A DNA stretch of 64,000 nt from Candidatus Altiarchaeales archaeon (GCA_014727915.1 WJMO01000006.1:472762-536761); one strand, 5' to 3'; positions 7,700-39,060 are shown, numbered from the stretch's first letter. Notes: generated by a model not told the origin, from the letters alone. Translations and numbers: made by a program.

Positions 7700-9356
7700 A
7701 GAACAAACCGCTTATCACACCGTCGTCGTCGATGTCTATCACTTCGGCCGCAGGCCTCCTGGGCAACCCGGGCATGGTCATAACCTTCCCAGTCAACACC
7801 ACGATGAAACCGGCGCCAGCCGACAAATGTATCTTCTTGACCGTTATCTTGAAGCCGTCCGGCCTCCCCAGCAATGTTGAGTCGTCGCTGAGGCTCTTCT
7901 GGGTCTTGCTCATGCAAACCGGGAGCTTGTCCAGGCCCTGGGCCTCCAGCTCCCGGATCTCATTCAACGCCCTCTCAGTGTATGTCACGCCGTCAGCCCC
8001 GTATATCTCCCGGGATATGGCCTCGATCTTCTCCCTAATGGGCTTGCCAGGATCATAGAGGAACCTGAAATCTGACTTTGACTTGGACGCCTTAAGCACT
8101 GCCTCAGCCAGCTCCAAACCGCCGTCGCCCCCCATGGAATGCACCTCCGACAGCGCGCAGTCGACCTTCTTGTCCCTGCACCTCCCCAGCACAAAGTCGA
8201 CCTCAGCGTCCGTGTCAGTGGCAAACCGGTTGACTGCAACAACCAAGGGCACATTGAACTTCAACACGTTCTCTATCTGCTTCTCCAGGTTAGGCCATCC
8301 CTTCTCCAACGCCAGCAAATCCTCCATTTCATATTCGCTGCATCCGCCATGGTGCTTCAACGCCCTCACCGTCGCCACCAGGACGACCGCGTCAGGCTTC
8401 AAACCCGCCTGCCGGCACTTGATGTCGAAGAACTTCTCAGCGCCCAGGTCCGCGCCGAACCCGGCCTCGGTCACGACAACATCCGCCAGCTTCAACGCCA
8501 TCTTCGTCGCCACCACGCTGTTGCACCCGTGGGCGATGTTAGCGAACGGACCGCCATGGATTATGGCAGGCCCGCCCTCCATGGTCTGCACCAGGTTGGG
8601 GTTGAACGCGTCACGCAAAAGGGCGGCCATGGCACCCTGGACCTTCAACTGCTCGACGGTGACAGGGTCGCCGAAGAACGTATAACCAACGACCATCCTG
8701 GCAAGCCGCTCCCTCAGGTCATGGTAGCTCTCAGACAGGCACAACACGGCCATGACCTCGCTGGCGGCGGTGATGTCATACCTGTCCTCCCGAGCCAGGC
8801 CAGAAGAGTCGGCCAAACCGACGAATATGCGGCGGAGGCTCCGGTCGTTCATGTCCGTGACTCGATGCCATCTGACACGGTTGGGGTTGATGTTGAGCTC
8901 GTTACCCTGGAATATGTGATTGTCCACGACCGCGGACAACAGGTTGTTGGCCGCGGAAACCGCGGGTATGTCGCCTGTGAAGTACAGGTTGATGTCCTCC
9001 ATGGGAAGCACCTGACTGTACCCGCCGCCGGCCGCACCGCCCTTGATGCCCATAACAGGGCCGAGGGACGGCTCCCTTATGCACAAAACCGCGTTAACGT
9101 CCTTCTTCCGAAGCGCCTGGGTCAAGCCGACGGTTGTGGTTGTCTTCCCCTCACCCGGGGGTGTGGGAGTCATCGAAGTAACTAGCACCAGCTTACCGTC
9201 CCTGTTCTTCTTCAGCCGCTCCAAGAGCTTAACAGGCAGCTTGGCCTTGAACTTGCCATATGCCATGAGATCATCGGGTTCCAGGCCCAAATCTCCCGCA
9301 ACCTCCTCGACAGGCCTCAGATCAACCGAATGCGCTATCTCAATATCAGATTTCAT
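7698..9356 (-). CDS. fhs: Formate--tetrahydrofolate ligase
   Basis: 552 aa. MKSDIEIA N-terminus and [15 protein letters not shown]-loop, with FTHFS family length and layout. Confidence 0.85.
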
Positions 9357-9427: not shown

Positions 9428-11197
9428 ATGGCTGCTACGAGGAGGGTTGAGAGAATAGGATTTGACGGGGATCTGCCCAGGATCATAGCACACCCCGTGG
9501 ACGAGCAGATAGTCGTATTAAGGAACCCCGACGTGCCCTTCAGGAGGGATGGGAAACATGTTGAAGGCCCGGTGGTCATGACCCGCGGGGGCATAGGCTA
9601 CGTCGTCGGCAGCAACAGATTAGACGCCAGGGACGAAAGCCCTGAAAGAGCAGCCGAACTAGTCCGGATGAAGGATAGCATGGACCGGGGGGAGATCACC
9701 ATAACAACACCATATGATATCTACACCGGCGGACTTTTCGGGGACAAGAGCAAACTGGCGATCGTGTTCACAAGCGGGGGGGAAGGGTCGAGCATCGGAG
9801 TCAACAACGCGGAGGTCACACGGGAACTGAGCAGCACACACGTCGTCCTAGGAGCATGGCAGGGCTTCCAGGCAGGGGTGAAGACAACAGAGGAGTTCGC
9901 AAGACAGCTTACCGTGTTAAACGACCCGGCAACCACCGAGAGGATGAGCCGCACGGGAGGCTCCACCCTTGGAATGTCACGCACAAAGGTCAGATTCGAC
10001 TCCGAAAATCCAGAGGACATAGAGGCTGCTGAAAACCTCTTCACCAACGTGCGATACGTGGGCGTAGTATTCGGGAACGGGGGCGGAGACCACACACAGA
10101 ACTTCATGAACTTGTACCTGAAGGCGCAGGCAGAGGGGGCAAGCCAGATTGTCATAGGAGTGACGCCGAAGAGCATGGACAACGACCTGGCAATAAATTT
10201 AAACGACGGGACAATCGCCAACTCACTGATGCTGGGATTCCCAACAACCGCGTATGTTATGCGCCGGCACTTCCTGGACGAGATGCAGAGCGCAGCCGGA
10301 GCAGGACGCGGCACGGTGGGGTTCTTCTTCGGACGCGGAGCGGGATGGACCGTCCTGGGAGCCATAAGGAACGACATGGAATACAGGGAGAATATGCGGG
10401 AGGACGGCATATTGACGGCGGACATGGAGAACAAGATGGACAGCCTCGGACCGCGGACGATAGGATTGGTGCCCGAGTATCCGGTGTCAATACCCTACTT
10501 CGCAGCCTCGATTAACAAAATCTACAACGAGGGTAGCATAGACGGGCAGGGAGGGGAAGTCAGGGACAAGTTCGTCGGAGTCGCAGTATCCGAAGGCTTC
10601 ATGTTCACGGAACTGATCTCCGAATTCGAAAGGCTCACCAGGGAGAGGGAGGAGGGAAGGCTCACTGAAGAAATCGTCATCGAAAAGGTGTCCAGAAACG
10701 ATTTGGAAGACCTGATAGAGGACGAGAACGTCAAGAGGATAATGGGTGAAAACCCGGAGATGGCCAAGAAATTCTTCGAACAAGTGATGAAGCCCAAACT
10801 GGACGTCTGGGAACACCCCAAAGTTGACTTCGGACCCCAGTTCGTGCACGCGGTGATGAACAGCAGCCTAACGGACGTGCCGAAAAACAATTATGCAGAG
10901 ATAAAATACGAGGCGCGCACCGGAGAGACCGTACCCGCCGACCGGGCCCTGGGAGAGGTCACCGGCAGGGTGGAAGCCGAGACTATAAGAGCCGGCAGGT
11001 CGGGGGTGACCACTGTGACTTATGAGGCGGGCGAAGACCCGTTACTGATAGACCCCCGCAAGCGGGGGGCAAGCTTCATACCCTTCGAGGACATAGCCGG
11101 GATGAGCGAAGACCAGAACAACCTAAGGACTTTGGACCCCAACTACCTCAGAAAGCTGGGGATACTCATCGAACCCCATTTTGAGATGCCAGCCTAA
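9428..11197 (+). CDS. Phosphofructokinase-A family protein, divergent long form (possibly PPi-dependent), substrate uncertain
   Basis: PFK motifs recognisable but altered: FTSGGEGSSIGVNNA (for TSGGDAPGMNAA), GNGGGDHT (for GGDGS), PKSMDNDL (for PGTIDNDI), RTGGSTLG, VMRRH (for MGR). Extra roughly 90-aa N-terminal and 200-aa C-terminal extensions. Confidence 0.55.
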   Translation: MAATRRVERIGFDGDLPRIIAHPVDEQIVVLRNPDVPFRRDGKHVEGPVVMTRGGIGYVVGSNRLDARDESPERAAELVRMKDSMDRGEITITTPYDIYTGGLFGDKSKLAIVFTSGGEGSSIGVNNAEVTRELSSTHVVLGAWQGFQAGVKTTEEFARQLTVLNDPATTERMSRTGGSTLGMSRTKVRFDSENPEDIEAAENLFTNVRYVGVVFGNGGGDHTQNFMNLYLKAQAEGASQIVIGVTPKSMDNDLAINLNDGTIANSLMLGFPTTAYVMRRHFLDEMQSAAGAGRGTVGFFFGRGAGWTVLGAIRNDMEYRENMREDGILTADMENKMDSLGPRTIGLVPEYPVSIPYFAASINKIYNEGSIDGQGGEVRDKFVGVAVSEGFMFTELISEFERLTREREEGRLTEEIVIEKVSRNDLEDLIEDENVKRIMGENPEMAKKFFEQVMKPKLDVWEHPKVDFGPQFVHAVMNSSLTDVPKNNYAEIKYEARTGETVPADRALGEVTGRVEAETIRAGRSGVTTVTYEAGEDPLLIDPRKRGASFIPFEDIAGMSEDQNNLRTLDPNYLRKLGILIEPHFEMPA

Positions 11198-15051: not shown

Positions 15052-15212
15052 GAGGATACAATATATGGGACCCATATTATAATAAAAACAGGACAAAACC
15101 GGATTTCACAATAGTTTAAACAATTATATGAACTATTAAAAGGAAAACAGGTATAATTCAAACAAAGACAAGCCTTATATTGCCATCCTCCCTACTACTA
15201 TAAGCTGTTTCT

Positions 15213-15293
15213 GGGCCTGTAGCCTAGCGGATGCTGCTCACATGCGTTCGCGCAGACGAAACTGCAACAGCAGTCTAGCCTAAGGCGACAGCC
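15213..15293 (+). repeat. Partial direct copy of the tRNA-Arg 5' half (positions 1-20 and 21-32) interrupted by a 49-nt insertion carrying a UUCG hairpin
   Basis: GGGCCTGTAGCCTAGCGGAT ... AAGGCGACAGCC matches nt 1-32 of the downstream tRNA. The insert (15233-15281) contains TGCG-TTCG-CGCA and a GCTGCT/AGCAGT stem. A TATA-like cttatatt lies about 35 nt upstream. Confidence 0.5.
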
Positions 15294-15326
15294 CAAAATA
15301 GAAAACATAGAAGGAAGCACATTCAC

Positions 15327-15478
15327 GGGCCTGTAGCCTAGCGGATAAGGCGACAGCCTTCTACGAGCCCCTTTCTTTTAAAAAAAGAAAGGTGCTTCAC
15401 CCCCAAAGAAAAAAATAGGGTGGTGAGGAAGGGTTCGGGGATAGCTGTAGATCATGGGTTCGAATCCCATCAGGCCCA
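15327..15478 (+). tRNA. tRNA-Arg (anticodon TCT) with a 79-nt intron at the canonical 37/38 position (intron 15364-15442)
   Basis: Hand-folded cloverleaf: acceptor GGGCCTG/CAGGCCC, D-arm GCCT-AGCGGATA-AGGC, anticodon stem ACAGC/GCTGT with loop CTTCTA|A, 5-nt variable loop, T-arm ATGGG-TTCGAAT-CCCAT, discriminator A, no encoded CCA. The intron holds a perfect 9-bp hairpin CTTTCTTTT-aaa-AAAAGAAAG. Confidence 0.7.
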
Positions 15479-15490
15479 CAAGAATTTTTT

Positions 15491-16966
15491 ATGTTGGGGT
15501 TAAGGGGTTTTATTTCCATCATTTTAATCCCTAATATGCGCTTATGTTGTCTGATAGTCCTTATCCTCATTTTCTCAGGCTGTATGGGAGGATATGACAA
15601 AACAGAAGAATCAAAGCCAGACAATTATTGTGAAACCGATCGAGATTGCAGCCCTCTCGGATGTTGTTGTCCTAAAAAATGTACGGGTTCAGTATATGCC
15701 AGCCAGTACTATTATGAAAACTGTAAAGGGAAACCCTGTCCAGAAGTAGTATGTAACCCTGTTGTGACATGCACTTGTGAAAATAACATGTGTAAAACAC
15801 ACAAAGATAGTGTATTCAAAAAAACCACTTCATCAACTCAATCCACCACGACAACTTTGAAGATTGGGACTGATTATTCTGAACTAATCCACATGTATAC
15901 TGACAAATTCGACTCAAACAGTTCTATAATCAAATGCCAAAATGATGATGACTGTATCTTAGTCCCAAATATTGGTAGTTGTAATGCTGGTGGCATAAAT
16001 ATAGCCATCAATAAGGATTTCCAAGAGGGGTGGAACAAGCAACTAAATGAAGAACGTAGAGGGATGGTGTTTGCAGGAGTCATGTCGCAGCATTCATCAT
16101 GTTTCTCAAATCCAGTTTGTAACGATAATAAATGCACGACTGAGATTAACAATACAATGATTTGCAGTCAACAGGATATTCGTGGAAACTGTGAAAATCC
16201 TGCATATGCGAATAACTGGAAAAAGGAACTGGGTATACGATGTGAAGATCTTAATGCAATATGTCAGTGGGGGATAGGGAATATCAATGCATCAGACTTC
16301 ATAAATTGGGATGAGAACTTCGGGTCGTGGGGGGATGAATACGGGACATTCATCCAACTTAGAGATTTTAGCGGATATGAGTACGACCTAAACTCCTCGG
16401 TGGACGAAAAATTAAAGGTCTACGCATTACGTCGTGAGAAAAGCAGGAATATATCAAAGGAGTTCATAGCTTTCCTGAAGCAGTTGGATGTGAGTATAGA
16501 TGAGGATAGGAGTTTCGGGAAGATAATGGTTGTCGGAGGACGAAAAGATGACATGCAAAAGGTCATCTTCCACCCCTATGTCGAGTCATATTCCAGAGAT
16601 AACCCGGGATTCCCGGAGGATATTTTCACAGAAACTGAGCTGAAATATTGCATGACTGATGATGACTGCATAAGTATTGAAGCATATAGGAATGGATGTA
16701 CGGCCGGTGGGACATCAATACCCATGAATAAAAAATTCAAGGAGTATTGGACCGATAAGAGATTGTCAGATACTCTTTTTACAGGAACTACTGGGGTGCT
16801 ATCCTTCCATTGGTCCTGTTTTGCAATCCCAAAATGTCTGAACCATAGGTGTGCATTAGTCAATACAACGTGTTCAAGTCCTGAGGATTGTGACGGAGGA
16901 TACTACTACGAAAAGTTCAGTGAAGGAATAATATGCAAAGACAATAAATGTTATGGGGATATTTAG
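15491..16966 (+). CDS. Cys-rich secreted (lipo)protein with two internal roughly 70-aa repeats (CxxDDDC...AGG...NK.F.E.W...SCF..P.C module)
   Basis: Signal peptide with an FSGC lipobox-like motif. Paired segments CQNDDDCILVPNIGSCNAGGINIAINKDFQEGW... and CMTDDDCISIEAYRNGCTAGGTSIPMNKKFKEYW.... N- and C-terminal Cys knots. Low-GC codon usage. Confidence 0.5.
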   Translation: MLGLRGFISIILIPNMRLCCLIVLILIFSGCMGGYDKTEESKPDNYCETDRDCSPLGCCCPKKCTGSVYASQYYYENCKGKPCPEVVCNPVVTCTCENNMCKTHKDSVFKKTTSSTQSTTTTLKIGTDYSELIHMYTDKFDSNSSIIKCQNDDDCILVPNIGSCNAGGINIAINKDFQEGWNKQLNEERRGMVFAGVMSQHSSCFSNPVCNDNKCTTEINNTMICSQQDIRGNCENPAYANNWKKELGIRCEDLNAICQWGIGNINASDFINWDENFGSWGDEYGTFIQLRDFSGYEYDLNSSVDEKLKVYALRREKSRNISKEFIAFLKQLDVSIDEDRSFGKIMVVGGRKDDMQKVIFHPYVESYSRDNPGFPEDIFTETELKYCMTDDDCISIEAYRNGCTAGGTSIPMNKKFKEYWTDKRLSDTLFTGTTGVLSFHWSCFAIPKCLNHRCALVNTTCSSPEDCDGGYYYEKFSEGIICKDNKCYGDI

Positions 16967-17086
16967 GCTTCAAAAAAGGTTCTATTTTTGTCTAATAGTT
17001 GTTCCAGACTAACTTATAGTGACTATATATTGCAATAATCTATATTATAGATATCGAGAAAAATTATATATTGTAAAAGATATATT

Positions 17087-18256
17087 ATGAAAAGGAGTGA
17101 TTTTCCAGCCCCAAATGGCAGGTTTTCAAAGAATTCCGATGGAGACCTTACATTCATCCCAAACAGGATAATCCGGGATATTGAGGGACTATACTCTTCG
17201 GAGATAGTGAGCCTTCTTTCAAAGGCTGACAGGATGCTTGGTTCCCTGGACCGGTGTAGTCAAAGCGACCCGAACATTGACTTCCTCGTCGCGCCCTACA
17301 TACGGCTCGAGGCTGTCGCGAGCTCAAGAATCGAGGGGACTCAGACAACTTTAACGGACTACTACAAGCTGGAGGCAGAAAAGAAAGGGGAACACGACCC
17401 GGACTATATCGAGGTCAACAACTACATCAAAACGATGATGGCAGGCTTTGAGAGGGTCATTGGCGGACAAAAAATCGACCTCCCCTTCGTCAAATCACTT
17501 CATAAGACCCTTGTAGCGGGAAGCGAGCGCACAAAGGGGGTTCCCGGCCATGTCAGGACGAAACAGAACTGGATAGCCCCCATGAACTCGCCGATAGAGC
17601 TTGCGACATATGTCCCACCAGATCCAATTAAACTGGAGCCCCTGCTAAAGGATATGCAAGGATTCATCCTGAAAGACGATGACATCCCGCCGCTCATAAA
17701 GACGGCATTGATACACTATCAGTTCGAGGCGATACACCCGTTCGAAGACGGAAATGGGAGGGTCGGGAGAATCATCAACTCCCTCTACCTCGGCCAGGCA
17801 GGATGCCTCCACAGCCCGATCCTGTTTTTGAGCTTCTATTTCCAAAAGCACAGGGACGAATACTGGGCGAGGTTGTTGAGGACCAGCCAGCAAAGCGACT
17901 TCGACGGATGGCTTAGATTCTTTTTGAAGGGCATTATAGAGCAATCGCAAAGGTCTATAGAGCTTTCAAACAAGATAGAAGGGTTGCATACCAGCTATCA
18001 GGAACGTCTTGAGAAAAAGAGGGTCACAGCGACCACATTAAAGGCTTTGAGGCTGCTTTTCACAGGCAACCCATTCGTGTATATGACCGAGCTTGCAAGG
18101 GAGCTGGACGTCCATCTTCCGACGGCAAAGAAGGCGATAACACAGCTTGAGAAAGAAGGCATCCTGAAGCAATCAAAGGTCAAAAAGCCAGCAATCTACT
18201 TCGCCCCCGAGATAATAGATACATTACGGAAGGCTGAAAAGGAAATGCTCAAATAA
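17087..18256 (+). CDS. Fic/DOC family protein (probable AMPylator) with a C-terminal winged helix
   Basis: Canonical Fic motif HPFEDGNGRVGR (HxFx[DE]GNGRxxR). 389 aa. Confidence 0.8.
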   Translation: MKRSDFPAPNGRFSKNSDGDLTFIPNRIIRDIEGLYSSEIVSLLSKADRMLGSLDRCSQSDPNIDFLVAPYIRLEAVASSRIEGTQTTLTDYYKLEAEKKGEHDPDYIEVNNYIKTMMAGFERVIGGQKIDLPFVKSLHKTLVAGSERTKGVPGHVRTKQNWIAPMNSPIELATYVPPDPIKLEPLLKDMQGFILKDDDIPPLIKTALIHYQFEAIHPFEDGNGRVGRIINSLYLGQAGCLHSPILFLSFYFQKHRDEYWARLLRTSQQSDFDGWLRFFLKGIIEQSQRSIELSNKIEGLHTSYQERLEKKRVTATTLKALRLLFTGNPFVYMTELARELDVHLPTAKKAITQLEKEGILKQSKVKKPAIYFAPEIIDTLRKAEKEMLK

Positions 18257-18522
18257 CGCTCACAAGGACGCAAAAAAGGGAGTACGTACTGGTGGGGTGG
18301 TCAGGCATCAGGCCCGCATCAAATTAGATTAGACCAGGGGTTCGAACGCTCGGAAACCGAAGGTTTCCGGCGCGCCAAAATCCGCAGGCTTTTGAGCGTC
18401 CCATCAGGCCCGATACAGGATAATAATTGGGTGAGTGTTTGCTTGAGGCCGAAACACACTTTTTTTCCGTTGGAAAAAACCGACCCAGCTGGCGCAGGGA
18501 ATAAAGACCCGAGTCAGGTGTG

Positions 18523-19128
18523 CTAGAATGCTCTTGCCACAATAACCGAGGCAGCTGACAACAGAAGAGTTAGCACTGGCATGCAAACACACGCAGTATC
18601 GGCTGGTCTATCGGGAGAGGGAACAGTTGATGATGGTTTTCGGGCGGGGTATTTCGCTTCGTTTATGATTTCAAATGCTGCGGTTTTTGTCTCGTCCTTT
18701 TCCGGGTTTAATATGCTCACATCAAGTGTGTAGTAGACGCCATCAGAGTAGAAGTCGAAAAAACACTGTTCCTCGTCGGAGCCCGCCATTTCACATATGT
18801 AATATAGAGTGTGGCCAGAGTATGTGGCCTTTCCCACATTTCCCTGTTCATAGCCTTTTTTTAGGTCAGTCCATTCCGAGCTGCTCATATGTTGTTTCTC
18901 GAAGATGGCGACGATCCTATCGTCTGTTGAAGCATAGGATCTGCTGTTCAGGCTTTCCTCAACCATGGTCAGGTCTAATGCTGGCACATGGTCAGGGAAG
19001 GTTAGTTCGGCGACCGCCGGTGGTGAAAGGATGAGGAGTGCGAGGATGGCGAGATTGGAATGTTTCAGCATATAGAATGATTTGAGGAAGTGAATAAAAA
19101 ACCCAGATTCTGCCATCAACACCCACAA
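18523..19128 (-). CDS. Secreted protein with a C-terminal hydrophobic anchor
   Basis: Signal peptide (probable start at 19071, MLKHSNLAIL...), a C-terminal TM segment, and a basic tail. Confidence 0.35.
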   Translation of the reverse strand: MWVLMAESGFFIHFLKSFYMLKHSNLAILALLILSPPAVAELTFPDHVPALDLTMVEESLNSRSYASTDDRIVAIFEKQHMSSSEWTDLKKGYEQGNVGKATYSGHTLYYICEMAGSDEEQCFFDFYSDGVYYTLDVSILNPEKDETKTAAFEIINEAKYPARKPSSTVPSPDRPADTACVCMPVLTLLLSAASVIVARAF

Positions 19129-19182
19129 TACAGAAATCCCATTAAATATTTTTTTATATTGAATATTGCATTAGATAATGTC

Positions 19183-19620
19183 ATGAAAATAGGTTTAATC
19201 CTGGGTTTGGTGATGTTAGCCTCTGGGTGTCTCTGCTGCTGCAGTGGGGGATCTGACTATGGAGACTATGACTATGATGATTGGGATGCACCAACGGATT
19301 ATGCGGCAGCTACGGTAGCCTCTCCCAGTGGGGGCCCCAGGTTGGACTGCCTAGACGGGCATACACTCAATGACATCATGTGCTACAAGGCAGGGGGTGG
19401 GATTTCAACGGATGCCAGCCTCTGCAAGCAGATAGATGATCCGATTGGAGTTGCCGCATGCCTTGGTGGTGTGGCAGCAGTTAAAGACGATCCTAGCCTA
19501 TGCAGTCAAAGCAGGGGGGACTTGCATGATTTCTGCGTTGACGTATCCAATAGCAACTTCGCAGGAGAAACGGCAGGTAGCTTGGAGGAGAAATATCCCT
19601 TCCTGAAGCGGTGGGAGTAG
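19183..19620 (+). CDS. Cys-rich secreted lipoprotein with D-x-x-x-C repeats
   Basis: Start moved to MKIGLILGLVMLASGC (lipobox-like). A TATA-like tttttatatt sits about 30 nt upstream. Repeats of the form C..IDDP...AC / C.QSRGDLHDFC. Confidence 0.45.
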   Translation: MKIGLILGLVMLASGCLCCCSGGSDYGDYDYDDWDAPTDYAAATVASPSGGPRLDCLDGHTLNDIMCYKAGGGISTDASLCKQIDDPIGVAACLGGVAAVKDDPSLCSQSRGDLHDFCVDVSNSNFAGETAGSLEEKYPFLKRWE

Positions 19621-19903
19621 GGCGTTCATGGATATCCTGTCACCGGTATTTAACCTTTGTTTGCCTAAGTTCTTGTCATAATGGCGGATAGGATGTGGAC
19701 CTACCCTGAGTTGAGGTTTGTCTTCGTCAACCAGTTGAAGTACACACCCCAGGAGTTGGCCCTGCATGTCAATCGGGAGTTCCACGATGGGGATGACGTG
19801 AGGAGCGCCGTTGACATAGAGAATATCAAGAGGGGCAGGAACATATTCAACAAAGACCAGGGCTTCTGACCGCTTTTAATTCTGTTGTTTCTTATGAGTT
19901 ACG

Positions 19904-22261
19904 ATGAAATCCGCTGACTTGAAGTCTTCAGCCGCCGCTGTCTTCGCAGTGTCGATGATGGGCTATCTGATGACCTTGGCTCCCACCGTGTATGGGGGGG
20001 ACAGCGGGGACATGATAACAGCCTCGTATAATCTTGGCGTGGCACACCCCACAGGGTACCCCCTTTATATGCTGTTGGGCAAGGTGTTCTCGCTCATCCC
20101 GGTTGGGACGGTGGCCTACAGGTATAATCTGATGAGCGCGGTGTTCAGCGCTTTGGCTGCGGTTTTCATCTGCCTAACCACGATTTCTTTCACTAAGTCC
20201 AGGTTGGCGGGTGTGGGGTCTGGGTTGATGGTGGCCTTCTCCCACGCGATTTGGGACCAGGCCACTGTCGCGGAGGTCTACGCCTTGAACGGTTTCTTCG
20301 TTTCCCTGCTGATCTGGCTGGCCGTAAGGTTCAGGGAGAAGCGGGATAAGACTCTGCTTAGATACATCGCCTTCGCCTTTGGGCTGGGTTTGACAAACCA
20401 CATATCCCTGGTGTTTTACGCGCCCGCATTCGCGTACCTGTTGTATGAGGGCAATAGGAAGGCGTTTATGAAGATAGGAGCGGAGGTCAAGGCCTTCCTT
20501 GTGGCGCCGCTCCTCTTGTATCTATACATTCCATTGCGGGCTGGCAACAGGGTTTACAGCTGGGGTGACCCCAGGGGCGCGGCGGGTTTCATAAGGCATG
20601 TCACGGGGAGCATACACCGGCAGACCTACACTCTAACATTGAGCAAAGAGGGTGTTTTCGAGCGTTTCTTCGGTTTGTTGTATCATTATTTCAGGCAGTT
20701 CTCCCTTGCGGGTGCGCTTGTGTTGGCTGGCCTATACAACCACGGCGGCAAGAACAGGACATACCTCCGGTTCACTGGCCTTATGGTTGGCGCCGACCTC
20801 ATCTACGCCCTCTTCATAAACGATGTTTCGCTTCGGATCACCACATTCTGCATCCCCAGCATAATGGCCTTGGGCGTCTGGTCAGGTTATGGATTCCGGG
20901 ACGTCTTCAAAAGTTTCAAGAGGGGAAAGGACAATGCCTTTGAGGCGGTCGCGGTGGCGGTTGTAGTCCTGATAGTGTTCGCCTCCAACCATTACATAAG
21001 CGACCGGTCCGATAATCTCATAGCATACGATTATGCGATGAACATATTGAGGTCCGTGGACGAAGGGGGTGTTGTCTTCGCGGAGGGTGATAATACCGTG
21101 CTGCCTTTGAATTATCTTCTGCTTGTCGAGGGAGTTAGGCCGGATGTGACCTTGTACGAGCGCACGGGTTTCCTAAGCCACAGACTATACGGGAAAGACT
21201 TCATATTCCTAGATGAGGATGAGCACGGGGAAGCCCGGGACAGGGTCGAGTATGAGGTGGTCCAGGAGGGCAGGCCGGTATATTATACGACCAAATCCGA
21301 TGTTGACCTTCCAGGGTACGATCTGGAGCAGGCGGGTTTAGTGTATAAGGTCGTGGCAGAGGGTGAAGAAGGCCCCTCAGAGGATTATTGGAACCTATAC
21401 GACTACCGGGGAGTTTGGAACCAGACCACCTACGAGGACTTCATGACCAGGTACATAAAGGCGGCCTATTACCTTCGCCTTGCGGAATACCGTATGGGAG
21501 AGGACAAAGACGCCGCTTTGGAGTTGCTCAACGACGCCAAGAGGCTCCTCCCAGACAATGTGGAACTCCACTATGACATAGGCAACATACTACTGAGCAA
21601 AGGCGACTATAAGGGCGCGGTGGAGGAGTTCGGGAAGGTTTTAAAGGAAGACGCCGAGAATGTGAAGGCCTTGAACAACAGGGGCTATGCATATGCGATG
21701 ATGGGATACGGTGAAAGCGCCAAGGAGGATTATATCAAGGCTCTGAAGTTGGAGCCAGGATATCTTAAGGCGCGTTTCAACCTGGCGGGGGCGCTGATGG
21801 CAGAGGAGAGGTTCGGAGAGGCCAGCCAACAGTACAAGCTCATAGTCGCCGCTGACCCCGAGTACGCTAACGCTTACTTCAACATGGGAGTGAGCCTGTA
21901 CAGGACCGGCGACCACCAGGGCGCAGTGGATGCGTGGACCAGGTATCTGGATTTGAGCCCTGACAGCCCCAGGGCCGGGGAGATACTCGAGCAGATTGAG
22001 ATAATAGAGGACCAGTATGCTATGGAGCAGAACCTGCTAGAATGCTCCAACGACAGCGACTGCACAGTAACAGAATATCCGATAAACGCGTGCTGCATGC
22101 AAAGGAAGTGCAGGTGGAGGGCTATAAACAAGGAAGGGCTTGAGCTCCAGGAGAGATGGAGGGAAGATGAGTGCGGAGAGGAAATCAAGTGCATGGTGGA
22201 TGACTGCGGGGAGCCGGACCGGGAGGTACAGTGCGTCAAGTTCAAGTGCAAGCTAATATAG
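19904..22261 (+). CDS. GT-C-fold membrane glycosyltransferase-like domain (DUF2723/TMEM260-like) fused to TPR repeats and a C-terminal Cys-rich CxxDxDC module
   Basis: About 11 TM helices with first-loop motifs GGDSGD and HPTGYPLY. Residues about 520-690 are TPR-like (repeated AxxYxxxG, A.EL..A, alternating hydrophobics). The C-tail CSNDSDCTVTEYPINACCMQRKC...C..C matches the module seen in 15491-16966. Confidence 0.5.
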   Translation: MKSADLKSSAAAVFAVSMMGYLMTLAPTVYGGDSGDMITASYNLGVAHPTGYPLYMLLGKVFSLIPVGTVAYRYNLMSAVFSALAAVFICLTTISFTKSRLAGVGSGLMVAFSHAIWDQATVAEVYALNGFFVSLLIWLAVRFREKRDKTLLRYIAFAFGLGLTNHISLVFYAPAFAYLLYEGNRKAFMKIGAEVKAFLVAPLLLYLYIPLRAGNRVYSWGDPRGAAGFIRHVTGSIHRQTYTLTLSKEGVFERFFGLLYHYFRQFSLAGALVLAGLYNHGGKNRTYLRFTGLMVGADLIYALFINDVSLRITTFCIPSIMALGVWSGYGFRDVFKSFKRGKDNAFEAVAVAVVVLIVFASNHYISDRSDNLIAYDYAMNILRSVDEGGVVFAEGDNTVLPLNYLLLVEGVRPDVTLYERTGFLSHRLYGKDFIFLDEDEHGEARDRVEYEVVQEGRPVYYTTKSDVDLPGYDLEQAGLVYKVVAEGEEGPSEDYWNLYDYRGVWNQTTYEDFMTRYIKAAYYLRLAEYRMGEDKDAALELLNDAKRLLPDNVELHYDIGNILLSKGDYKGAVEEFGKVLKEDAENVKALNNRGYAYAMMGYGESAKEDYIKALKLEPGYLKARFNLAGALMAEERFGEASQQYKLIVAADPEYANAYFNMGVSLYRTGDHQGAVDAWTRYLDLSPDSPRAGEILEQIEIIEDQYAMEQNLLECSNDSDCTVTEYPINACCMQRKCRWRAINKEGLELQERWREDECGEEIKCMVDDCGEPDREVQCVKFKCKLI

Positions 22262-38639: not shown

Positions 38640-39060
38640 AAACAACATCCAATACTAACAGGAGGACAACACACAACCACCACTAACCACCCAATAAACC
38701 ACTAACACTAACTGATATTACCACTAACATCTAAAAAATAGCACCACTACTAACCACTTACTACTACCCAACTATTACTACCACTTACTACTACCTATTC
38801 CTTACTACCGCCACTACTACTACACACCACTAACTTTCACTACTATCTACCCCCAACTACTAGCCATCACTATCTATCACTACTATCTATTATTATTATT
38901 ATCTATTACTACTATCTATCTGTCAATAGCTACCACTACTACCTATCATTATCTGCCACTTACTACTATCTGCCACCAACCACCACTTACTAACAACTAA
39001 GACCACCCGCAACTGTCACTAACACCACCACAAGATAGCGGACAACAAACGTCATCCGCG
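38640..39060. repeat. About 420-bp G-free (plus-strand) low-complexity tract built from degenerate ACT/CCA/CTAT repeats
   Basis: The plus strand is almost exclusively C/A/T across 38640-39040 (ccactact, ctatct, tattatt repeats). It lies between convergent 3' ends. No ORFs are possible in it, since TAA/CTA/TCA/TTA are frequent. Confidence 0.8.

Follow-up and report, generated by a model that had tools for sequence, protein, structure and literature searches.

The window analysed here is a stretch of 64,000 nt from a metagenome-assembled genome (MAG) of a Candidatus Altiarchaeales archaeon, located on a contig of 536,761 bp. In this window, a functional tRNA-Arg(UCU) gene (15327-15478, + strand) is directly followed by an inserted segment of 2.83 kb (15479-18305, +), which is bounded by repeats of the tRNA 3' tail, holds two genes and is devoid of a recombinase. 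Encoded on it are a Cys-rich protein (GF416_06355; 15536-16966, +) and a SoFic-like class II Fic AMP-transferase (GF416_06360; 17087-18256, +). A second copy of the tail closes the segment at 18306-18316, and a partial copy of the tRNA 3' half, here called the tail module, follows at 18330-18412. The segment, referred to below as the islet, is probably a degraded remnant of a mobile element integrated in the tRNA tail.

For comparison, related loci were obtained through homologues of GlyA, encoded on the left side of the tRNA gene (L081-L083, L088-L090, L093, and L094; 74-81% identity), or through a degenerate pattern of the tRNA-Arg 5' exon (L084-L087). Two JGI relatives were compared as gene lists. 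GlyA is too conserved for a search of the genome collection, in which the best among the matches listed were bacteria with about 60% identity.

A tRNA-Arg gene had been proposed at this position by an earlier reading of the DNA (the sequence-only reading), and it is confirmed by a match to Rfam RF00005 (59.6 bits), in which the anticodon loop contains a long insertion. The exons (15327-15363 and 15443-15478) are separated at the canonical position 37/38 by an intron of 79 nt (15364-15442), because of which ARAGORN reported no tRNA at the locus. The anticodon loop reads CUUCUA, with the anticodon UCU, and the gene is therefore assigned to tRNA-Arg(UCU). The precursor folds as a cloverleaf with an intron (z = -5.4). 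A bulge-helix-bulge can be drawn from the sequence (ACAGC-CUUC-[UA^C]-GAGCC ... GGUUC-GGGG-[AU^A]-GCUGU), and in the minimum-free-energy fold the local pairing around the splice sites deviates slightly from it. Among relatives, an intron is present in tRNA-Arg(UCU) of L081/L086, L088, and L089, and L084, L085, L087, and L093 are intronless; the gene in L089 has the same 5' exon as the one in the window. The discriminator base (position 73) is A in the working tRNA of the window, and G in both downstream tail copies and in the tRNAs of 7 of the 10 relatives.

The tail 10-mer of this tRNA, CATCAGGCCC, starts at positions 15468, 18306, and 18402, always on the + strand. These are three occurrences against 0.26 expected, a number that none of 100 shuffles reached, and the possibility of chance matches, which the sequence-only reading had itself raised, can be set aside. 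Another stretch, GGGGTTCGAA, is located at 18337-18346. The positions of the first two copies uphold the view that DNA was inserted at the tRNA 3' tail between tail repeats. The left junction, similar to an attL attachment (att) site, is composed of CATCAGGCCC and the discriminator A (15468-15478, +), and the islet starts with the base directly after it, at 15479, leaving the tRNA intact and foldable. The right junction, similar to attR, is the putative displaced tail CATCAGGCCCG (18306-18316, +; copy 1), delimited by the repeat and by collinearity with L089. Similarity of the two junctions extends beyond the tRNA end into the next 9 nt, in which copy 1 and the tRNA have similar flanks, and the segments 15468-15487 and 18306-18325 are identical in 16 of 20 positions.

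The third occurrence of the 10-mer belongs to the tail module (18330-18412, +), recognized by a k-mer scan and by comparison with relatives. The module is comprised of tRNA positions 44-59 with 2 mismatches (18330-18346), a 52-nt insert with two hairpins placed between T-loop positions 59 and 60 (18347-18398), and tRNA positions 60-73, TCCCATCAGGCCCG (18399-18412; copy 2). Two stretches that are adjacent in the tRNA, GGGTTCGAA (18338-18346; gene positions 130-138) and TCCCATCAGGCCC (18399-18411; gene positions 139-151), are exactly 52 nt apart in the window, and because of their contiguity in the tRNA they represent a single interrupted copy of the 3' half and not two features. The sequence-only reading had counted the second repeat and the T-loop-like piece as part of a footprint of serial integration. 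This interpretation has to be abandoned for these two pieces, which form one module found in six lineages, while copy 1 is retained as the mark of the insertion considered here.

A perfect copy of the last 13-14 nt of the tRNA (from T-loop position 60) begins 68-80 nt past the gene in six related lineages. Its start is at +76 nt after the tRNA end in L081, +73 in L084, +68 in L085 and L094, and +80 in L089; in L088 two copies start at +73 and +157, with discriminators G and A, respectively. Every copy is identical to the diverged tRNA tail of its own lineage. In L083, L090, and L093 a perfect copy was not found. In modules of relatives, the tail copy is closely preceded by a hairpin, and a left arm of complementary sequence is located further upstream. 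Because such homologous tail-bearing stem-loops occupy a similar place in six related lineages, the module appears to be an old and lineage-wide feature, and not the scar of a second recent integration. The most complete form is in L089, in which the tRNA is followed by 11 nt and TAAGATCGTGGGTTCGAA[51 nt]TCCCACCAGGCCCG, with the T-stem closing two hairpins (z = -5.3). The module of the window is homologous to positions 7470-7552 of L089, with GGCGCGCC in common and with hairpins that differ in sequence and are still self-complementary; it is decayed, as indicated by a weak fold (z = -1.5) and a T-stem mismatch.

Covariation was evaluated on seven modules from six genomes, with the structure derived from the same alignment, and compared with 500 shuffles and with controls in which the 3' partner was slid by 1-3 columns. 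Standard pairs make up 80.7% of cells in the two helices (66.4% in shuffles, none of 500 reaching the observed value; 31-51% in slid controls). The covariation score is 0.47 (0.23 in shuffles, reached in 0/500; 0.06-0.16 in slid controls), and both sides are changed in 11 of 17 pairs (7.3 in shuffles, reached in 2/500; 1-6 in slid controls). The outer stem, formed by the left arm and the tail copy, and the inner hairpin have thus been retained via compensatory changes in these seven modules. A covariance model of the module gives 49.9 bits for the copy in the window, which is itself a training sequence. In a scan of 506 kb it detected only the training modules and the duplicate in L094, all of them downstream of tRNA-Arg(UCU). 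Rfam has no match to 18330-18412 even at E <= 1. A bulge-helix-bulge intron was considered for the 52-nt T-loop insert and rejected, as the folds show closing stems and no 3-4-3 bulge-helix-bulge.

On the simplest reading, 18306-18316 would be the original tail of the tRNA, displaced by the 2.8-kb insertion. We infer which of the copies is original from several features. From 18306 onwards, the window contains CATCAGGCCCG, a 13-nt spacer and the module, and in the alignment L089 contains the tRNA tail, an 11-nt spacer and the module. The gap between copy 1 (18306-18316) and copy 2 (18399-18412) is 82 nt, corresponding to the tRNA-to-copy distance in relatives (68-80 nt). No module-type stem-loop precedes copy 1, where the module covariance model gives no match. 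The G at position 73 and the similar flanks of the two junctions complete the set.

Composition of the locus is uneven. With a background GC content at third codon positions (GC3) of 0.688±0.062 over 46 open reading frames (ORFs), the longest ORF of the Cys-rich gene (15491-16966) has a GC3 of 0.40 (-4.6 standard deviations, SD; codon usage -6 SD), and the Fic ORF (17087-18256) has 0.62 (-1.1 SD; codon usage -1.25 SD). The sequence-only reading stated that GC falls exactly at the tRNA 3' end, where a low-GC island begins. Sliding-window GC places the start of the drop at ~14800, within the intergenic region between glyA and the tRNA; low values are indeed present, with a minimum of 35-43% over 15600-17200, and the Fic gene has ~50%. 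Similarly, tetranucleotide deviation reaches z = 6-7 over 15.0-17.25 kb and falls to ~2 over Fic. The anomaly is therefore patchy, with only the left half of the islet clearly foreign and the Fic half host-like, and it continues more weakly past 18412. Two further ORFs, at 18523-19128 (- strand; GC3 0.51, about -3 SD; codon usage -3.4 SD) and at 19090-19620 (+; GC3 0.50, about -3 SD; codon usage -3.9 SD), are specific for the window and have the look of secreted proteins or lipoproteins. They are located outside of the tail repeats and have no match in Pfam, PHROG or PADLOC, and no DNA match in relatives.

The product of the Cys-rich gene has 460 aa in GenBank. A signal peptide and a lipobox were read directly from its N-terminus, MRLCCLIVLILIFSGC, without a prediction tool, and the protein is probably a secreted, lipid-anchored lipoprotein. 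It contains two copies of a Cys-rich domain of ~110 aa, with 32% identity over 113 aa (E = 2e-15), and this internal duplication indicates a real gene. Among 5.8 billion proteins the sole full-length match is the protein itself, from the Candidatus Altiarchaeales MAG. The domain alone has 244 remote homologues, 22 of them at E <= 1e-10, and is covered by no Pfam model. The AlphaFold model of the repeat (mean predicted local distance difference test, pLDDT, of 49) is too poor for a fold search. A weak resemblance was noticed in the neighbourhood: the gene for a TMEM260-like glycosyltransferase ends in a Cys-rich extension of ~80 aa (22016-22261), missing from the L081 orthologue, and this extension is similar to the islet repeat at E = 0.004, with 15 invariant columns including 7 Cys.

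The Fic protein has the Fic_N and Fic domains and a C-terminal winged helix, according to Pfam, and an exact look-up of its sequence gave no record. It belongs to the SoFic family, as shown by PADLOC, with its SoFic model matched over profile positions 9-359 of 361 (E = 9e-99), by the SoFic structures 3EQX/3ZCN in PDB (E ~1e-32 over residues 48-382) and by phrog_5978 (E = 4.5e-73). Reading of the translation revealed intact motifs, the catalytic H217-PFEDGNGRVGR-228 and the inhibitory S79-SRIEG-84. Its nearest homologues form a small cluster with 53-56% identity, one of them labelled Altiarchaeota, and all others have <= 43%, which in the best explanation points to Altiarchaeota descent of the gene. 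SoFic is described as a standalone anti-phage protein (bioRxiv 10.1101/2022.05.11.491447), and toxicity was reported for it, together with a small protein encoded downstream, AS1, that counteracts it (PMC12249575). Defence was reported to proceed via AMPylation/abortive infection and is known for bacterial members only (Millman et al. 2022; Wu et al. 2025, PMC12249575). The suggestion made at the outset that Fic can act as a toxin agrees with this family assignment, and the gene can be regarded as a candidate for anti-virus defence in the archaeon. A small gene similar to the AS1 antitoxin is not evident downstream of Fic.

Two members of the Fic cluster (L091 and L092) were compared at the level of contigs. 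In L092, the Fic homologue (56% identical) ends ~80 nt from the 3' end of a tRNA-Asn gene, with no tail repeat beyond the Fic gene. In L091, the homologue is located between direct repeats of 98 nt (7807-7904 and 9622-9719; 95% identical), and a low-GC gene for a Cys-rich, lipoprotein-like protein follows from 9861 to the contig end. The Cys-rich/Fic pairing of the window may therefore recur in L091. No common non-coding borders of a cassette could be detected among the three Fic loci.

Whether relatives have the same genes at the same site was proposed as a check on the sequence-only reading, and none of those examined carries the Cys-rich and Fic genes at the tRNA-Arg site. In the region 15100-19900, DNA in common with relatives is limited to the tRNA, the Fic coding sequence (at other loci), the module (18368-18413), and a gene of 62 aa starting from 19647. 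Within the islet itself (15479-18305), matches of relatives correspond to the Fic coding sequence only, at other places in their genomes. The flanks are syntenic, and the interval between glyA and the gene for the TMEM260-like protein has a different gene content in every relative lineage; in L089 it is comprised essentially of the tRNA and the module alone. We also considered a 201-aa ORF located after the module as a homologue of the 181-aa gene that follows the L081 tRNA. No similarity was found, and L081 thus does not represent a simple empty site.

Combining these results, we favour, with moderate confidence, the explanation that 15479-18305 is a small islet left by a mobile element in the tail of tRNA-Arg(UCU). 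Site-specific recombination would have brought the element into the terminal 10-20 bp of the intron-containing gene. The tRNA would have been rebuilt in this process, so that its extreme 3' tip with the discriminator A is now derived from the element, and the attP of the element would contain CATCAGGCCC(A)CAAGAATTT. The original tail CATCAGGCCCG, with the discriminator G, would have been moved 2.8 kb downstream to 18306-18316, where it would still precede, at the ancestral spacing, the older lineage-wide module at 18330-18412. We infer that a recombinase made these junctions and that its gene was later lost, or else the segment may have been mobilised in trans. The cargo would be the SoFic-type Fic AMP-transferase and the probably lipid-anchored, secreted Cys-rich protein with strongly foreign codon usage.

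This scenario agrees with what is known of archaeal integrases, which prefer tRNA 3' ends and use att sites as short as 14 nt that may extend past the gene, with tRNA-Arg(TCT) among the three tRNA genes most frequently targeted for integration in archaea (PMC8371274). A SoFic cargo fits the expectation for an integration hot spot. The position of Fic homologues near the tRNA-Asn 3' end in L092, and between long direct repeats in L091, also speaks for integration.

Several observations weigh against it. The exact repeat is only 10-11 nt long. In agreement with the sequence-only reading, which took the integrase to be apparently lost, a search for integrases and other mobility genes gave none in the islet and in ~15 kb of sequence at each of its sides (Pfam, ORFs >= 150 aa, 0.1-33.7 kb), and the non-coding gaps of the islet are too short for a recombinase. 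A donor element or attP was not detected in IMG/VR: scans for the tail in exact and degenerate form, for the core of the module and for the intron-type motif left only unrelated tRNAs and chance matches after filtering. The nearest relatives are distant, at the GlyA identities given above, so that a true empty site of a close relative is missing. Host-like composition of Fic means that the islet is mosaic or old. The odd ORFs at 18523-19620 are outside of the repeats, and local novelty is therefore not all derived from one integration. Furthermore, two tail copies in tandem without cargo between them exist in L088, and spacing alone is no proof that copy 1 is the former tail.

The last observation leads to an alternative, in which the ancestor had two tandem tail modules and the genes entered the first spacer by illegitimate or homologous recombination, eroding the first module to CATCAGGCCCG; the repeats would then not be att sites. 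We find this doubtful. The tandem modules of L088, with one discriminator of each kind, illustrate such an ancestor, tail copies are ubiquitous in the clade, and both the missing integrase and the compositionally native Fic would be accommodated. However, this requires an insertion whose right edge coincides exactly with the beginning of an 11-nt copy and which also removed the hairpin and the left arm of the module. In addition, the sequence after copy 1 aligns with the one following the tRNA tail in L089, and copy 1 and the tRNA are followed by similar flanks, as would be the case for att sites.

In another explanation, which we hold to be improbable, the tail structures are functional, either in processing or termination of the pre-tRNA 3' trailer or as a folded recombination site, and are kept by selection, while the two genes are residents of a fast-evolving intergenic region. 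Compensatory changes in the seven modules from six genomes, with pairing and covariation above 500 shuffles, fit with this, as do copies that match the diverged tail of their own lineage and the stable fold of the L089 module. On the other hand, the module of the window is decayed and copy 1 has no stem-loop, three loci (L083, L090, and L093) are without a perfect copy, and the number and spacing of modules vary. The covariation comes from seven sequences only, with a structure taken from the same alignment. Moreover, a function of the module would leave unexplained why the Cys-rich gene is absent in relatives and has a foreign composition.

An artefact of assembly or binning, joining a low-GC piece of another organism at short repeats, is hardly credible: the source is a metagenome assembly and the Cys-rich gene is very deviant and without another full-length homologue, but an assembler would not be misled by repeats as short as 10-14 nt, Fic in the same segment has host codon usage and an Altiarchaeota-labelled relative in its cluster, the Cys-rich domain is weakly present in the C-terminus of the neighbouring core TMEM260-like protein, and the 536,761-bp contig has syntenic core genes on both sides. 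Casposons are self-synthesising transposons that target tRNA 3' ends and produce target duplications of 14-15 bp, and are characterized by a Cas1 integrase, a family-B polymerase and terminal inverted repeats. This type of element was rejected for the islet, which has no Cas1 or polymerase and no terminal inverted repeats at its ends, although the 14-nt tail copies are of the right size.

The mobile-element remnant favoured here resembles archaeal tRNA-targeted elements with tyrosine integrases (of SSV, pNOB8, pTN3, and SNJ2 type) in the insertion at a tRNA 3' end, in the rebuilt tRNA, and in short att sites of 14 nt that reach past the gene (PMC8371274). It differs from them in having neither a whole nor a split integrase, nor other genes of an element, in its size of 2.8 kb, in the short exact repeat of 10-11 nt, and in that no free or integrated relative was found. 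The Fic protein is similar to SoFic (3EQX/3ZCN) in its full-length match, architecture and the HPFxDGNGRxxR and SxxxEG motifs, and differs from it in the archaeal host, in the lack of an obvious AS1-like gene, in an identity of <= 43% to bacterial members, and in a defence role that is here only predicted. The islet is thus of a known kind, a degraded defence islet linked to a tRNA, and the event is an ordinary one. Considered by itself, it adds a further, routine example of an integration hot spot at the tRNA of a rare codon, with a defence gene and a secreted protein. It places a SoFic-type gene in Altiarchaeota, little-studied subsurface archaea whose mobile elements are hardly described, and it exposes an extracellular Cys-rich domain that no family model covers and that has remote relatives by the hundreds.

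Upstream of the working gene, a 5' relic of tRNA-Arg (15213-15293, +) was detected by the k-mer scan and as a repeat family. It is comprised of tRNA positions 1-20, which are exact (15213-15232), an insert of 48 nt (15233-15280), and positions 20-32 (15281-15293). The working tRNA begins 114 nt after the start of the relic, and the gap between relic and gene is 33 nt in the window and ~105 nt in L081. According to sequence reading, a TATA-like CCTTATATTGCC precedes the relic by ~39 nt, a distance that normally separates promoter and tRNA in relatives. In the window, L081, and L084, it is the relic and not the working tRNA that has such a box ~33-43 nt upstream, and therefore the relic occupies the usual place of the gene relative to the promoter. 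Rfam gives no match to the relic even at E <= 1.

Relics of this type are associated with intron sequences. In L084, the relic joins tRNA positions 1-18 to the intron type that is functional in L081, while the tRNA of L084 itself is intronless. In L081, the relic contains tRNA positions 1-16 in the sequence version of the window, together with the start of the intron type found in the window (14 nt identical, GAGCCCCTTTCTTT). In front of a tRNA-Asn(GUU) gene in L092, positions 1-16 together with ~60-75 nt of structured sequence form a unit that is present three times in tandem; with the Fic homologue, this arrangement covers 2737-2997 and 1418-2735. This structured sequence shares the motif GGCATTCGCT...CGCTCAG with the Arg intron of L081, and the related motif GCGTTCGC is present in the L084 relic and in the insert of the window relic. 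The 48-nt insert has, by eye, a similarity to the core of introns and relics of L081 type, with which it could not be aligned convincingly. These relations fit, as a pattern and not as a demonstrated mechanism, the published idea that attP sites of elements carry tRNA pieces and introns into host genes (PMC3293823; PMC8371274).

Two other assignments of these fragments were rejected. The 5' relic and the 3' module cannot be taken as a split or trans-spliced tRNA: the anticodon arm is missing, no complementarity of leader and trailer is visible by eye, and there is no Rfam match. The 48-nt insert in the D-loop was likewise not accepted as a bulge-helix-bulge intron, as this copy is without the rest of the tRNA and is not recognized as a tRNA by Rfam at E <= 1.

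The upstream relic has a precedent in pTN3-like integrases, which use att sites in the 5' half of tRNA genes. A closer parallel is the tRNA-Thr locus of Caldiarchaeum (Sugahara et al. 2012, PMC3293823), with a 5' tRNA fragment upstream of the working gene and fragments beside intron-type sequence, for which the authors proposed that the attP of an element can carry an intron into a tRNA gene. As in this model, the relic of one lineage bears an intron type functional in another (L084 and L081, respectively). However, an insert of 1.8 kb with a recombinase separates fragment and gene in Caldiarchaeum, and here 33 to ~105 nt without a recombinase separate them, and the relics are without the anticodon arm. 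Compared with archaeal non-canonical introns (such as those at 59/60) and split tRNA genes, the module has a self-contained stem-loop insert of 52 nt exactly between positions 59 and 60, and the relic has an insert in the D-loop. They differ in that no bulge-helix-bulge was obtained by reading or in folds, and in that the copy, without positions 1-43, cannot make a tRNA. Split tRNA genes are further distinguished by complementary leader and trailer sequences, of which none were seen by eye, and Rfam detects no tRNA in module or relic.

In the clade, tRNA-Arg(UCU) and at least one tRNA-Asn are thus wrapped in partial tRNA copies joined to intron-type sequence, and the downstream tail copies covary with the tRNA. 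We tentatively suggest, as a possibility only, that the stem-loop 68-80 nt downstream is a selected element conserved in Altiarchaeota, either a recombination "landing pad" or a structure of the pre-tRNA trailer, and that the upstream relics record an ongoing exchange of introns and tRNA pieces. If true, a landing pad would consist of a copy of the att core, in folded or duplex form, that is used by elements and restored by them, and the islet of the window would be one captured instance. Turnover of introns driven by elements, if true, would provide a second and richer natural data set on intron gain and gene splitting in archaeal tRNAs. The module and the relic-intron relations are the part of the locus with moderate extra interest and are worth following up.

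Some additional arrangements of tRNA tails were observed in relatives. In L088 (7293-7464, - strand), a tRNA-Arg(UCU) with an intron of ~145 nt, below the Rfam gathering threshold, is followed by the two tandem tail modules. In L089 (7281-7552), the tRNA-Arg and module are inverted relative to glyA, unlike in the window, L081, and L085. In L093, a tail copy with one mismatch is located ~130-200 nt downstream of tRNA-Arg (- strand; 3' end at + 2288) and is followed by GAACCTT...AAGGTTCACGAA, the opening sequence of the L081 intron, which shows that intron-type sequence also exists downstream of a tail copy. A tRNA-Arg(CCU) in L081 (5779-5901) has at +36 nt a perfect inverted copy of 12 nt of its own tail (CGGGCTGGGATT) and no direct copy; its flank 'CACGAA' is also present in the tRNA-Arg(UCU) module of the same genome.

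Neighbouring genes of the islet on the left side belong to core metabolism (glycosyltransferases, PurN, FTHFS, PurH, FolD, and GlyA). The right side contains the TMEM260-like glycosyltransferase, two PurP genes, a DnaG-like Toprim protein, and an AAA ATPase. This flanking order of syntenic core genes is common to the window and related Altiarchaeota contigs, and in most loci of relatives tRNA-Arg(UCU) is found near glyA. In L083 (1-1000), a gene similar to TrbC/type IV secretion system (T4SS) pilin lies between the tRNA-Arg 3' end and glyA, another hint of mobile DNA at this place. The other strong tetranucleotide outlier of the window (z ~7) is an intergenic stretch of degenerate short tandem repeats of CACTACTAC type, at 38698-38970.

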